A stretch of 64,000 nt of DNA. It comes from an uncultured Clostridia bacterium. GTDB lineage: Bacteria; Bacillota; Clostridia; TANB77; CAG-508. Below, piece after piece: positions 3,297 to 39,815 of the stretch. Below the pieces are notes generated by a model. The model saw only the letters and a list, made by a program, of their open reading frames with translations, was not told where the DNA came from and did not search any database. A program made the position numbers and the translations under genes. Positions within the stretch are counted from its first letter, which is position 1, and each line of letters opens with the position of its first letter. The stretch is taken from contig CANQVU010000001.1 of NCBI GenBank assembly GCA_947627415.1, positions 28,369 to 92,368 of the forward strand. Reading direction: 5' to 3'.

Positions 3297-3483
3297 AATA
3301 AATTGTAATTTGTGTAATTGTTTTTAAATTAATTTGATTAGTAAAATAGTTTAAATATAATTTTTGAAATAGGAGCTTCGAATCCAAAATTATTATGAAA
3401 TAATAATTTTTGTGAAGAAGGACGTCTTGAAAAAATTATATTAAACTATTTTACAGTAATAAATAAGACAAACAACAATTTAT
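3297..3483. repeat. MITE/REP-like intergenic element, copy 5 (inverted orientation, divergent interior)
   Basis: Starts aataaattgtaatttgtgt and ends gacaaacaacaatttat, which are the two family termini in reverse orientation. The interior carries a long inverted repeat, gtaaaatagtttaaatataattttt / aaaaattatattaaactattttac. Confidence 0.6.
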
Positions 3484-3500
3484 ACGAGAGGATTGATTTT

Positions 3501-4043
3501 ATGTTTATATATAATTTCAAGTTTAATGGAAAAGCATTAGTAAAAATTTTACTTGTTATTGTAGCAATAGCAGTAACTTTGTATTTTGCTATATCCACAT
3601 ATAAAATATATCAAAGTAGCTTTAAAGTAAAAGATGAAATAGATGAAAACAAAATAATGTATTTGACAGCTGAAAACTATACAAATATTTTAAAATCTGT
3701 GCATAATGATGTAGATAGTTATGTAGGTAAAAAAATTTGTTTTACAGGTTATGTCTATAGAGCACTAGACTTTAAGGAAACAGAATTTGTTTTAGCAAGG
3801 GATATGATAATAAGTTCTGACATGCAAACATTAATAGTTGGTTTTTTATGTGACTGTAAGAATGCAAAAGATTTTGAAAATGAATCTTGGGTTGAAATAA
3901 TAGGAGAAATTTCTAAAGGTTCATATCATGGAGATATGCCAATTATTGAAATAAAAGAAATTAAACAGATAGAAAAACCAAAAGACGATATATATGTATA
4001 TCCACCTGATGATACATACATTCCAACATCTGCTATATTTTAA
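3501..4043 (+). CDS. membrane-anchored protein of unknown function
   Basis: 180 aa ORF preceded by RBS gagagg. It has one N-terminal TM helix (ALVKILLVIVAIAVTLYFAI). No family confidently recognised. Confidence 0.5.
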   Translation: MFIYNFKFNGKALVKILLVIVAIAVTLYFAISTYKIYQSSFKVKDEIDENKIMYLTAENYTNILKSVHNDVDSYVGKKICFTGYVYRALDFKETEFVLARDMIISSDMQTLIVGFLCDCKNAKDFENESWVEIIGEISKGSYHGDMPIIEIKEIKQIEKPKDDIYVYPPDDTYIPTSAIF

Positions 4044-4050
4044 ACTCAAA

Positions 4051-4079
4051 AGTTCTATGTCATATAATGGCATAGAACT
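4051..4079. terminator. hairpin between convergent genes
   Basis: agttctatg / catagaact stem with an 11-nt loop. The flanking T runs are weak. Confidence 0.45.
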
Positions 4080-4095
4080 TTAATTAGAACATTCA

Positions 4096-4311
4096 TTAAA
4101 ATTCTATTTGAGGAATATATAATCCAGAATCATATATATATCCTTTATTTTCAATAAAATCTTCATAAATGTCCATCTTGGGAAGAATATACATAGTAAC
4201 TCCATCAACAAAAGCAAAGTTGCTGTTGTTAGAATTATAGTGTTTATCCTTACCCATTTGTGAGGTAAACATCTGAACTGCAGATTCCCTCAAATTTTCG
4301 AGTGTCATCAT
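4096..4311 (-). CDS. hypothetical protein (71 aa)
   Basis: ORF only; an RBS-like gagagg lies upstream. Confidence 0.4.
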   Translation of the reverse strand: MMTLENLRESAVQMFTSQMGKDKHYNSNNSNFAFVDGVTMYILPKMDIYEDFIENKGYIYDSGLYIPQIEF

Positions 4312-4501
4312 TTAAATAACCTCTCTTATTTATTTGTGCAATCAAATTACACATGAATTTATTATATCATTTTATGTTAATATTTGCAAATCTATTATTT
4401 GAATATTTAGTAAATATGTGATATAATTATTTTATTCATATTATATGAACTCTACTATTCAAATGAATAGTAAAAAAAAGTTAAGGAGGGGCAATAATAA
4501 T

Positions 4502-4702
4502 ATGAACCGACTGGAGAAAATTCAGTTTATTAGGCATAGTCACCCTAAACTCTATATTGACTTGAAGGAAAAGATTGAAGACTTCGGCAAAGAATGGTGG
4601 CGGCCTACAGAAAAAGAATTAAAGGACTATAATAAAATTGTTGCAGAGTATTGTAAAGAAAATTGTAACAATGATCTGGCAAAAATGTTATCTTTGCCAT
4701 AA
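4502..4702 (+). CDS. hypothetical small protein (66 aa)
   Basis: ATG at 4502 follows the strong RBS aaggagggg, and a terminator lies downstream. Codon usage is atypically GC-rich (CGA, CTG, CGG, GGC, CAC). Confidence 0.5.
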   Translation: MNRLEKIQFIRHSHPKLYIDLKEKIEDFGKEWWRPTEKELKDYNKIVAEYCKENCNNDLAKMLSLP

Positions 4703-37185: not shown

Positions 37186-37244
37186 AAATAATTCCTCTTC
37201 CCTTTTAATAAATTTATTTTTGATTGTAAAATCTTATTTTTTAT

Positions 37245-37880
37245 TTATGCTGACATTTCGAAAACTTGAATTCTATAGGTAGATAATCCTGTAGCAGCAG
37301 AAACCGCTTGAATTATATCTGTTTTTATATTTGCATTGCCAGCACCTTCTGCTGTAATAATTGCCCCCTCTATTTTTGGCATTACAACTTTTTGAGTAAT
37401 AGGGCTTTTTTCTCCATCTTTGTCTTCAAATATTATCTCTTTATTTGTATCTGTTTCTTCAATTTTTCTTGTGCCACCACTTGTATCTGTTTCTTCTGTA
37501 TTACTAGATGTATATGTTTCGTTATACATTGCAACCACTTCACTTGTTTCTGAATATGTAATTAATACTTCTACTTTTCCTACTCCTGATATTTTTGATA
37601 GTATGTCCTCTAGACTTTGTTCTAAATTATATTCAGCTAATTGCTGATTATTACTACTAATATTATTATTTATATTTTCTGCAAGCTGTTTGTATGAATT
37701 ATTATTATCTTCTTGTTTTACTTCTTCTTTCTTGTCTCCCCATATAGTATTAATTGCAACAACTGTTATTATTAAAAGTACTAAAAAAAGAACTAAATTC
37801 TCTATTTTTCTTTTATTATTTCCCTCTGTTTCCTTTATAAACTTTGACTTGATAATTTTAAATTTATCTTTAAACATCAT
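37245..37880 (-). CDS. spoIIIAG: stage III sporulation protein AG
   Basis: Supported by operon position, a single TM helix and the LEDILSKISGVGKVEVLITY motif. Confidence 0.85.
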   Translation of the reverse strand: MMFKDKFKIIKSKFIKETEGNNKRKIENLVLFLVLLIITVVAINTIWGDKKEEVKQEDNNNSYKQLAENINNNISSNNQQLAEYNLEQSLEDILSKISGVGKVEVLITYSETSEVVAMYNETYTSSNTEETDTSGGTRKIEETDTNKEIIFEDKDGEKSPITQKVVMPKIEGAIITAEGAGNANIKTDIIQAVSAATGLSTYRIQVFEMSA

Positions 37881-37888
37881 TATACCAC

Positions 37889-38530
37889 CTACTCATTAAT
37901 ATGTATTTTTTCTTTTTCAATCATATATGTTGTATACAAATAATCTTTTAGGTTATTTATATCCTCCTCAGAAATGCCTATTTGACATGTTTCAGAATTT
38001 TTATTCACATTGCTATTTGAAATACTTACTTCTACTTTTTCTATTTGATTAACTGAATTTTGCGTGACATTTTTGTTCTCTACTTTATTGTTATCTTCTA
38101 GTTTCTCTATTTTTGATATTTGCATAAATATATTATTTATTTGTCCGTATGTTTCTTCATTTTCAGTCTCTATGTCCATATCTAATGAACTAACATTATA
38201 TCCTTTTTCCTTTATTTTATTATTTAAATCATCTTCTATTTTTTGTTTATAAGTTTCTTCTATATAACTATTTGTCTCTATTACCATATTATTATTTACT
38301 TCATATTTATTTATTTGGTTAGTAGTATTCTCTATAATTGATTGTATGTTAATGTTTTTATTTGATAATTTTGATATTAATGGATAAATTATTACAAATA
38401 GTATGTAAATTCCTATAATTGTTTTTACATATTTCTTGTTATTTCCTTCAGGTAGAATTATTTCAATTAATGTTGAAACTATTACTGCCACCATTATTCC
38501 TTGAGCCCATGAATTTATAAAGTTTACCAA
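37889..38530 (-). CDS. spoIIIAF: stage III sporulation protein AF
   Basis: N-terminal two-TM region W..GIMVAVIVSTLIEIILPEGNNKKYVKTIIGIYILFVIIYPL is typical of SpoIIIAF. Confidence 0.85.
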   Translation of the reverse strand: MVNFINSWAQGIMVAVIVSTLIEIILPEGNNKKYVKTIIGIYILFVIIYPLISKLSNKNINIQSIIENTTNQINKYEVNNNMVIETNSYIEETYKQKIEDDLNNKIKEKGYNVSSLDMDIETENEETYGQINNIFMQISKIEKLEDNNKVENKNVTQNSVNQIEKVEVSISNSNVNKNSETCQIGISEEDINNLKDYLYTTYMIEKEKIHINE

Positions 38531-38541
38531 CTTATATTCAC

Positions 38542-39686
38542 CTACCTATACATCATTCCATTGTTAGATATTTTTATACACATTCCCAGTCCTGTAATAA
38601 GCAGTACTGCAACGAAAAACATTATTCCTAAAAGTACTTTAAAAGTTCCTCCCATCTGTTCTAATAACACCACTATCTTCTTATCTGCTAATGGTTCACA
38701 TATTGCTGAAGCAAAGTGATATGTGATTGTTAATATTGATAATTTTATTATAGGCATAGCGCATATTCCAATTATTACAAACATTCCTACAATTCCAATT
38801 GAATTTTTAAGAATTGATGTTGAACCGATTACCATGTCTACTGATTCACCTAAAGCTTTACCTACTACAGGGATTAATCCAGAAGCTGCCTTTATTCCTT
38901 TTGCTGCAAGTCCGATCTACATTGCTAGTTAACCCCCCTTCCAATGATAATACACTTACAAATATAGTTATAACTATACCTAATATCCAAATAACACCTG
39001 ACTTTAAAAATTTAGATAATTTTCCTATTTGTACTTTATCAGATAAATTTGATATTATTCCTAATGCTGTTGCAATTAAAGTAACTGGTAAAATAAATAC
39101 TGTTATAGTATTTGCTATAAATAGTACTGCAAATATAATTATAGGTTGTATTAAAGTTACTGATGCTACGCTTCCGGGTAGCAGACATTAAAGCAAGCAA
39201 AATAGGAACTAATGAATTTATAAATCCTACTAAATTCGAGATTGATTCCCTTATCATACTTATAATACTAGAAAAATTAGTCATAATTAATGTAACAATT
39301 AAAATGTATTGTACGTAATAAGCTATTTGTCCAATGCCCTCTCCATTATTTAAACCATCAGTAAAATTTTTCAATATACTATGTATTACTATTATTATTA
39401 AAATACTTCCCAAAATAGAAATACTTGATATTACTTCATTCCCAAACAATGATAATATTCCTTTGTATATTCCAATATTGTCAATTTTGCCTCTAATTGC
39501 TGAATTTAGTAAATCACTTAAATTAATATCTGGAAATACATCTGATGTGTAATTTTGCCCTTCCTGAATAAATGATGATAAATTTAGTGAATCCATTTGT
39601 GATGAAATGATTTCATCTGTTGCATATGTATTAGTAAACAAAATTAAACATATTAAAGCAAAAAGTATTATTATTCTTTTTATCAT
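38542..39686 (-). pseudogene. spoIIIAE: stage III sporulation protein AE, frame broken twice
   Basis: Signal peptide plus a polytopic membrane protein. Junctions are ...LALMSAT|GSVASVTLIQP... (~39176, ACC-C-GGA) and ...LTSNVD|GLAAKGIKAASGLIPVVGKALG... (38914, GAT-C-GGA). Confidence 0.85.
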
Positions 39687-39697
39687 TTCTTCTCCCT

Positions 39698-39815
39698 AAT
39701 AAATTATAGTTTGTGTGAGGGGAATTCTAGGGACTGTCCCTAAAAATCACCAATTTAGGGGATTTTTAGGACTGTCCTGAATTCACCTGAAACTCACAAA
39801 CTACAATTTGTTTTT
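39698..39815. repeat. MITE/REP-like element, copy 4 (short form, inverted) inside the spoIIIA operon
   Basis: Reverse complement of copy 3, filling the spoIIIAD-spoIIIAE gap exactly from the spoIIIAD stop. Confidence 0.85.

Follow-up and report, generated by a model that had tools for sequence, protein, structure and literature searches.

What is the sequence that recurs between the genes of a low-GC Clostridia bacterium, five times within one 64-kb stretch, each time as a long imperfect palindrome without an open reading frame (ORF) of its own? The stretch (contig CANQVU010000001.1 of an uncultured bacterium, positions 28,369 to 92,368; GC content 27%), here called the window, had been considered in the original prediction, from its letters alone, to carry a family like miniature inverted-repeat transposable elements (MITEs) or repetitive extragenic palindromes (REPs). 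It has been compared with 766 kb of related DNA in tiles, so that 830 kb were examined in all (sequences other than the window are cited by L number). The repeats are an undescribed, lineage-specific family of small gene-less palindromic elements which resembles the REP/BIME (bacterial interspersed mosaic element) and MITE repeats known elsewhere. Their most interesting feature is that related species share element sites at which the interior is flipped or replaced. The reading we favour, at a probability of roughly 0.6, is a non-autonomous palindromic repeat family that is spread or homogenised in trans.

Five copies and their architecture

The five non-coding elements of the window are 113–186 nt long and end in ATAAATTGTWRTTTG and its inverted partner. 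A search of the window with ATAAATTGTWRTTTG gives ten matches at 0–1 mismatch, and these are exactly five inverted pairs, at 3298/3483, 5917/6086, 7371/7547, 36375/36494 and 39699/39811 (copies A to E). The predicted copies are thus all present, with slightly refined bounds, and do share imperfect terminal inverted repeats. Four further matches in the window, each with two mismatches, were put down to chance. The same verdict was reached on a 3.2-kb candidate for a full-length element (20592–23808), which has 2-mismatch termini and encloses smpB, fba (class II aldolase) and a peroxiredoxin gene. The nested core that had been described for four of the copies is equally real: GGAATTCAGGRCAGTCCC occurs four times in the window against 0.00 expected in shuffles, and an extra module common to B and C occurs twice, again against 0.00. 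A covariance model derived from 63 relatives, applied unfiltered to the whole window, recovers only B, C, D and E, at 43–111 bits (E scores 111), and all other regions stay at or below 20 bits, the level of generic AT-rich intergenic hairpins.

The core, M2, is found in four of the five copies (B, C, D and E), a further module, M1, in B and C, and A has the family termini only. Copy B (5917–6086, plus strand) consists of an L terminus, M1 (5931–5996), M2 (6003–6065, with the TTTTTTTCCC/GGGAAAAAA variant of the central hairpin) and an R terminus. Copy C (7371–7547, plus strand) has the same order, with M1 at 7385–7450 and M2 at 7457–7521. D (36375–36494, plus strand) and E (39699–39811, minus strand) are of the basic form, termini and M2 (36403–36468 and 39721–39785 respectively), the termini of E being TAG-type with one mismatch each. 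Copy A (3298–3483, minus strand) has a TAA-type terminus at 3298–3312, a TTG-type terminus at 3469–3483 and, between them, a long AT-rich hairpin of its own (arms 3351–3396 and 3400–3445), an interior that has no relative in the 766 kb of related DNA. The two termini of A, B, C and D are unlike: the left one is TTG-type, the right one TAA-type. Family-wide, conservation is at least 94% from AAATTG to CAATTT, and only about 74–79% at the outer A-T.

Folded as single-stranded DNA, every window copy forms a single long hairpin that its termini close, at about −24 to −45.5 kcal/mol and with z-scores of −6.1 to −9.1 against shuffles (A, −27 kcal/mol and z −6.1; C, Y-shaped with two branches, −45.5 kcal/mol and z −9.1; D, z −6.4 and −7.7; E, z −7.6 and −8.4). 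In the terminal stem of 13–17 bp, AAATTGTWRTTTG(TGTG) pairs with (CACA)CAAAYWACAATTT. In M2 a unit of ~20 nt, GAATTC(T)AGG(G)AC-N-GTCC, is repeated as an inverted doublet whose left half reads GAATTC-AGG-ACAGTCC and whose right half reads GGACAGTCC-CTAGAATTC. Each half contains the small palindrome GGAC-N-GTCC, and the invariant GGACAGTCC palindromes, two per element, are 41 bp apart. The central hairpin of M2 is AAAATCCCC-loop-GGTGATTTT or the variant TTTTTTCC/GGAAAAAA. M1 is an optional hairpin of ~66 nt between the left terminus and M2.

The arms change in concert. Terminus pairs occur in the family as UA/GC, AU/UA and GC/AU, positions 7–9 of the terminus read TTG/CAA, TAG/CTA, TAA/TTA or GAA/TTC, and the outer M2 stem is GGAA/TTCC, GGAG/CTCC or GGGG/CCCC. 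Double-change cells number 60 as against 22 in shuffles (a value reached by 0 of 500 shuffles), and 91% of cells are paired, against 32–54% when the partners are slid, though subfamily relatedness inflates these counts. Because of that inflation the covariation is read as a sign that pairing is kept up, and not as proof of an RNA.

Distribution, shared sites and flipped interiors

A single scan of species-representative genomes with the M2 pattern gave tiles of at most 8 kb, and the family statistics rest on the matches listed in it. The family has more than 104 loci in at least 18 species-level gut Clostridia genomes, the carriers including Clostridium sp. CAG:452 and metagenome-assembled genomes (MAGs) of human (Hadza and other) and rabbit gut origin. 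Among the listed tiles and the window there are at least 124 distinct M2 copies, with both termini in 96; modal length is 109–111 nt, and elements with inverted termini range over 109–334 nt. Density in the window is about one element per 13–16 kb. While 29 invariant columns of M2 were fixed by the search pattern, the central core is also invariant outside those columns across the 18 genomes, including a conserved C-T mismatch.

No catalogued family corresponds to it. A known non-coding RNA was rejected because Rfam has no match at gathering thresholds and at permissive E-values gives only eukaryotic microRNA-hairpin noise (20–26 bits, where the thresholds are 58–180). A phage or plasmid origin was set aside for want of any blastn match in the phage or plasmid collections; in IMG/VR a CAG:452-type copy lies on one contig only (L109), beside ordinary genes. 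The core and terminus sequences were not found in the literature searched. With loci outside the window and no catalogued match, the family is neither confined to this stretch nor already known, and the earlier description of a dispersed palindromic family without an ORF and in both orientations is borne out.

Copies resemble those of their own genome more than those of other genomes. Mean identity is 92.4% within genomes and 86.1% between them, and 50 of 67 copies have their nearest neighbour in their own genome. Ten pairs at the same site in different species are 83–92% identical, whereas their best paralogs are 94–100% identical (97–100% except in one genome). Four 259-nt composites in a single genome, at 98–99% identity, are a sign of recent amplification or homogenisation.

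Occupancy of shared sites is common, although the sampling by tiles favours such sites. Orientation at orthologous sites is the same in 11 of 20 pairs and inverted in the other 9. At one site, present in four species, the elements are flanked by the same terminator and the same ribosome binding site (RBS) with coincident junctions, and two are forward and two reversed. At another site, two sister species with flanks ~90% identical retain the right junction and terminus and differ in the interior: a 110-nt basic copy in one faces a 259-nt composite in the other, with M2 in the opposite orientation and another central hairpin. Among the window copies, the site of A is occupied in L084 by an M2-type copy, and that of C (L084 6035–6360) by a 300-nt mosaic. 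In CAG:452, E has an ortholog in the same orientation at 84% identity (L062 4465–4576), and the site of D (L062 about 7699–7740) is empty, with an AT-rich palindrome there. Since some orthologous sites are empty, true gain and loss occur as well. Within-species polymorphism was not seen, the only same-species assemblies found being identical to the window. M1 in relatives (L053 1261–1331, L082 101–171 and L107 4973–5037, compared with window 5931–6001 and 7385–7455) is 97–99% identical in 3–4 species with coding flanks that are only about 80–87% identical, which points to strong constraint or to a recent exchange among species that share a gut.

What lies between the termini is interchangeable. 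The family termini may enclose nothing (an empty hairpin of 31 nt), GTGAGG-type hairpins or GC-rich GTAGGGG-stem-loop-stem ... CCCCTAC doublets, and M2 is in turn found without termini or within GC-rich REP clusters; mosaics in relatives reach 300–460 nt. A solo hairpin in CAG:452 (L062 2280–2310; 31 nt, AAATTGTAATTTG-CTTTG-CAAATTACAATTT and then Ts) replaces the canonical GC-rich intrinsic terminator 3′ of the orthologous gene in window region 41920–42080. Relatives also have GTAG-headed GC-rich REP hairpins, such as GTAGGGGTCGCC-GAG-GGCGACCCC and GTAGGGGCAGGCCCTGTGTCTGCCC, which form inverted doublets and BIME-like clusters, often within the terminal stems of the present family (L084 6000–6400; L089 923–1065 and 1886–2028; L104 6006–6226; L007 7539–7717). 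They are frequent in relatives; one MAG, for example, has 26 GTAGGGG sites per 160 kb. By the definitions of PMC3733652 and PMC6006769 they are canonical REPs with a GTAG tag, and this REP family of low-GC gut Clostridia may itself be undescribed.

Placement with respect to genes was classified for 105 copies, of which 77 lie between co-directional, 21 between divergent and 7 between convergent genes; three further copies are inside called ORFs. The upstream stop codon overlaps the terminus at 31 of 67 stop-facing ends (23 as the boundary TAA, 6 as a TAA or TAG nine bases in and 2 at 18 nt inside the terminus), and start codons cluster 13–35 nt from the other element end, so that the typical order is stop, element, RBS, start. 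In the window, A is between divergent genes, secA (432–3185, minus strand) and a DUF1980 gene (3501–4043, plus strand), and stops 3 nt short of the Shine-Dalgarno sequence of the latter. The other four are between co-directional genes. Copy D is between spoIIIAH (36526–37185, minus strand), the last spoIIIA gene, and the next gene (36026–36355, minus strand), whose Shine-Dalgarno sequence its end abuts. E lies in the gap from the spoIIIAD stop at 39816 to the spoIIIAE start at 39686, and 3 nt separate its end from the Shine-Dalgarno sequence of the latter gene. The assertion that copies are always between genes stands as mostly intergenic and needs qualification for B and C: the stop codon of the CBS-domain gene (6083–6523, minus strand) is the TAA at 6083–6085 within the R terminus of B, and that of the Mur-ligase gene (7537–9102, minus strand), at 7537–7539, is 11 nt inside the R terminus of C.

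Mobility, homogenisation and possible function

In the reading we favour, a trans-acting activity on the hairpin would spread and homogenise the copies, the agents in mind being a single-strand DNA enzyme of HUH/RAYT type and/or gene conversion between dispersed copies. RAYTs of group 1 do occur in Clostridia (PMC5581495), a precedent in its favour. An HUH-type enzyme specifically as the mobiliser is possible but rather doubtful. The simplest reading of the shared sites would be that occupied sites persist and that their interiors are overwritten from other copies. Since one terminus is an inverted copy of the other, a donor could align either way, and random orientation and swapped or flipped interiors at fixed junctions would follow. 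Being within operons, many of the copies would be co-transcribed; the transcript could form a hairpin of ~50 bp, and an effect on read-through, processing, mRNA ends or mRNA stability as a by-product is plausible.

Several points weigh against this reading. No RAYT, IS200-type or other transposase was found in the window and the 766 kb of tiles, which are a few per cent of those genomes. Searches with an HUH motif expression and by tblastn (IS200, IS608 and RayT, with approximate queries) gave no match, a weak negative. REPs are defined by a conserved GT[AG]G tetranucleotide 0–2 nt 5′ of the hairpin foot (PMC6006769). The window has no GTAG-type REP, and its family copies lack a GT[AG]G foot (their termini have GTTG and GTAA); family-wide the foot position is GTAG, GTAA, GTTG or GGAA and covaries with its partner. 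With neither the foot in the window copies nor a RAYT found, the family falls short of a REP family in the formal sense. Gene conversion is something that we infer from the patterns, and repeated independent insertion at hot spots would equally give shared sites and random orientation; excision and re-insertion by some enzyme would give similar site patterns. The pattern-fixed columns of M2 and the inflated covariation counts belong on the same side of the balance.

Neither target-site duplications nor a cognate transposase, for both of which the original prediction had advised a check, came to light in the DNA examined, and this bears on the classical MITE explanation: internally deleted derivatives of an insertion sequence (IS) with a DDE transposase (e.g. 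IS630/Tc1-like, with a TA target), cut and pasted via the 13–17-bp terminal repeats. Such elements would have the inverted ends, the small size, the absence of an ORF, the many copies in both orientations and the presence/absence differences between species that are seen here, and the A/T-rich flanks would suit them too, as would the T-A that lies across each boundary in some 75% of copies. We nevertheless hold the explanation unlikely. A statistical matrix of 94 copies has no direct-identity diagonal and no correlation of left with right flank at any offset; the four young 259-nt composites have unrelated flanks and no duplication; and nine ~98% identical copies of one genome, again with unrelated flanks, have TA at 5 of 9 left and 4 of 9 right ends. 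Among comparisons of filled with empty sites between species one (L097/L078) would admit a CAAT duplication, though not as part of any general pattern. The 830 kb contain no within-genome repeat longer than ~285 nt and, for the few per cent of those genomes that they represent, no parent IS or transposase-like ORF. Moreover, complementarity and covariation run through the whole element, beyond its ends, and interiors are swapped or flipped at conserved junctions. Of the earlier MITE/REP-like label, therefore, the MITE half has neither a duplication nor a visible parent IS to support it, and the REP-like half is the more apt, given the mosaic modules, the arms that covary, the variants peculiar to each species at shared sites and the physical association with GTAG REPs in relatives: to go by the sequences, the behaviour looks closer to that of REPIN/BIME than to that of a DDE-type MITE.

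Might the host instead have selected the elements for what they do? A cis-acting RNA just upstream of the RBS, as intercistronic terminator or attenuator, processing site or mRNA stabiliser, would explain the position from stop codon to RBS and the filling of many sites in several species. It would also suit an orientation bias of ~2:1 (50:27 with respect to gene direction; 74:39 with respect to the G-rich strand, p = 0.001), the two being inseparable, as gene direction follows the skew in 96 of 102 tiles. A further point in its favour is RNA folding: the complement of the L-to-R strand is the one that the commoner orientation puts into the transcript, and its fold as RNA is better by 4.3 kcal/mol. 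Copy D, which closes the spoIIIA operon, has on its transcribed (minus) strand a weak terminator-like central hairpin with a T-run (3 GC pairs in a crude scan that B, C and E do not pass), two empty orthologous sites hold terminator-like palindromes instead, and the CAG:452 solo hairpin stands in a terminator's place. Against this, 9 of the 20 orthologous pairs are inverted, 21 of the 105 copies are in divergent promoter regions, and strong termination at the spoIIIAD–spoIIIAE junction would do harm. The folding asymmetry is alike in sense and antisense contexts (p = 0.73); being independent of the direction of transcription, it is a family trait rather than a local adaptation, and strand-specific RNA selection was rejected on this ground. 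As paralogs are also closer than orthologs and no Rfam family matches, host-selected RNA function is judged improbable. Binding sites in double-stranded DNA, the GGACAGTCC palindromes and the ATCCCC/GGTGAT core serving as operators for a regulator or nucleoid protein on a mobile carrier, would agree with the core invariance beyond the pattern-fixed columns (C-T mismatch included), with the 97–99% identity of M1 across three species against about 80–87% for coding flanks, and with the many copies that abut gene starts. We consider them a highly unlikely explanation: no candidate protein is known, the recognition site of a mobilising enzyme would show the same conservation, and the neighbouring genes (secA, mur ligase, spoIIIA, spoVAD and others) have no common theme. 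Very doubtful, too, is the idea of terminal hairpins as fixed landing pads between stop codon and RBS, with interiors exchanged or flipped by a dedicated system, be it of HUH type or one of recombination specific for hairpins. RNA folding and the hairpin/U-run motif are not the same in the two orientations, and so flipping or replacement would give heritable variation per locus; if the idea were true, read-through or mRNA stability would vary locus by locus at many operon junctions in these reduced gut Clostridia genomes.

Several more specific candidates were rejected. The genes between inverted copies that might have been REPtron-like (a REPtron being a single-copy RAYT gene flanked by its repeats) are housekeeping genes (a flavoprotein in L073, SpoVAD in L081), a pair of termini spanning 1.5 kb in L105 is no full element and encloses a Sua5/TsaC-like housekeeping gene, and other long terminus pairs are two separate elements or mosaics without an ORF. 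An IS200/IS605-derived PATE, which has subterminal hairpins, lacks terminal inverted repeats and inserts 3′ of a fixed tetra- or pentanucleotide, does not fit ends that are inverted repeats and left-flank nucleotides that vary even among young copies. Integron attC sites were dismissed by inspection, there being no RYYYAAC/GTTRRRY fit, mixed orientations and housekeeping neighbours. Outward promoters in the termini were discounted because a promoter scan is not enriched over shuffles, with decent matches only in A.

The host, known systems and what the family means

The window has a strongly negative GC skew, with nearly all its genes on the minus strand. It encodes SecA, a Mur ligase and the spoIIIA operon, from which the host is taken to be a spore-forming member of Clostridia. 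Its spoIIIAE (38542–39686) is not one ORF: a 215-aa N-terminal ORF (39039–39686) is followed by pieces in two frames (high-scoring pairs 39094–38885 and 38913–38545). In CAG:452 the gene is likewise split, into ORFs of 176 aa and 186 aa; a frameshift, a pseudogene and a split peculiar to the lineage are all possible explanations. A gene for an AI-2E family transporter (4739–5837) appears split into overlapping ORFs of 279 aa and 107 aa, and one for a hexapeptide-repeat transferase (35800–36355) into 109 aa and a 48-aa ORF, the latter called downstream in L001. As an independent ENA assembly (L001, L110) matches the window at 100% identity over the regions covered, the transporter and transferase splits are not the error of one assembly. 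Logan contigs of the same strain (L002–L004) end at window 36430, the centre of copy D, and L111 spans window 6038–7400, ending inside B and C; palindromic repeats break short-read de Bruijn assemblies of this organism.

Other repeats were met with besides. Two AT-rich intergenic palindromes unrelated to the family (27120–27207, with 44-nt arms at 84% complementarity, and 54729–54828, with 43-nt arms at 72%) are probably bidirectional terminators. Four tandem 15-nt units (TGATTCYTCTGTRGT) at 20422–20496 are within an ORF (20116–20697) with a weak SpoIIIAH-like match, where they would encode a short peptide repeat. Relatives also have lineage-specific intergenic insertions of 120–375 nt, absent from sister species and unrelated to the family (L081 2602–2755; L078 3566–3688; L012 4490–4693; L022 943–1317), some of them hairpin-forming or leader- or small-RNA-like.

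How does the family compare with known systems? With the proteobacterial REP/REPIN/BIME repeats, mobilised by RAYT (TnpA-REP) enzymes of the HUH-Y1 class, it shares extragenic, high-copy imperfect palindromes whose inverted doublets form long hairpins, mosaic clusters, the lack of target-site duplication and arms that change in concert. REP sequences are species-specific (PMC6006769), REP termini supply stop codons and REP dimers are nested in longer palindromes (PMC3733652), and here too species-specific sequence is found at shared sites, termini supply stop codons and doublets lie within longer palindromes; in relatives the elements are interleaved with the GTAG-headed GC-rich REPs themselves. 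It differs, apart from the missing GT[AG]G foot and RAYT already discussed, in that M2 has (C)TAG at one foot only, in its AT-rich terminal stem of ~13–17 bp and in its host, a 27% GC spore-forming lineage of Clostridia for which REPIN systems are not described in the literature searched.

The MITEs of DDE-type IS, such as Correia/NEMIS of Neisseria and RUP of S. pneumoniae, are similarly of ~100–200 nt, with terminal inverted repeats and no ORF, intergenic, co-transcribed with neighbours and able to fold as long hairpins. Unlike them, the present elements have no TA or other duplication, no parent IS in sight, and interchangeable interiors, which turn up inverted or substituted while the junctions stay fixed. 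The BOX elements of Streptococcus pneumoniae are modular (boxA-boxB-boxC, in direct modular order), hairpin-forming and intergenic, and we know of no transposase for them. The likeness to BOX lies in the Firmicute host and in conserved end modules with variable internal ones; the difference is that the palindromes here are nested, and the sequences are not known to be related. Invertons, e.g. the cwpV and flgB switches of C. difficile, have inverted repeats around about 100–200 bp just upstream of a gene. They are found in either orientation, one of which can form a terminator-like RNA hairpin. By contrast the inverted repeat here makes up the entire element, near-identical copies number tens or more per genome (from sampled tiles rather than a genome-wide count), no recombinase is known, and no heterogeneity within a population was observed, the only same-species assemblies being identical.

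In the compact low-GC genomes of the CAG:452 relatives this family is a main determinant of intergenic sequence, its elements supplying stop codons, sitting directly upstream of RBSs and lying inside operons such as spoIIIA. It extends REPIN/BIME-like behaviour, that is mosaic palindromes and concerted evolution without duplication, to a lineage of Clostridia. The shared sites with flipped or swapped interiors provide a clean data set on how repeats are homogenised, an old question for REPs.

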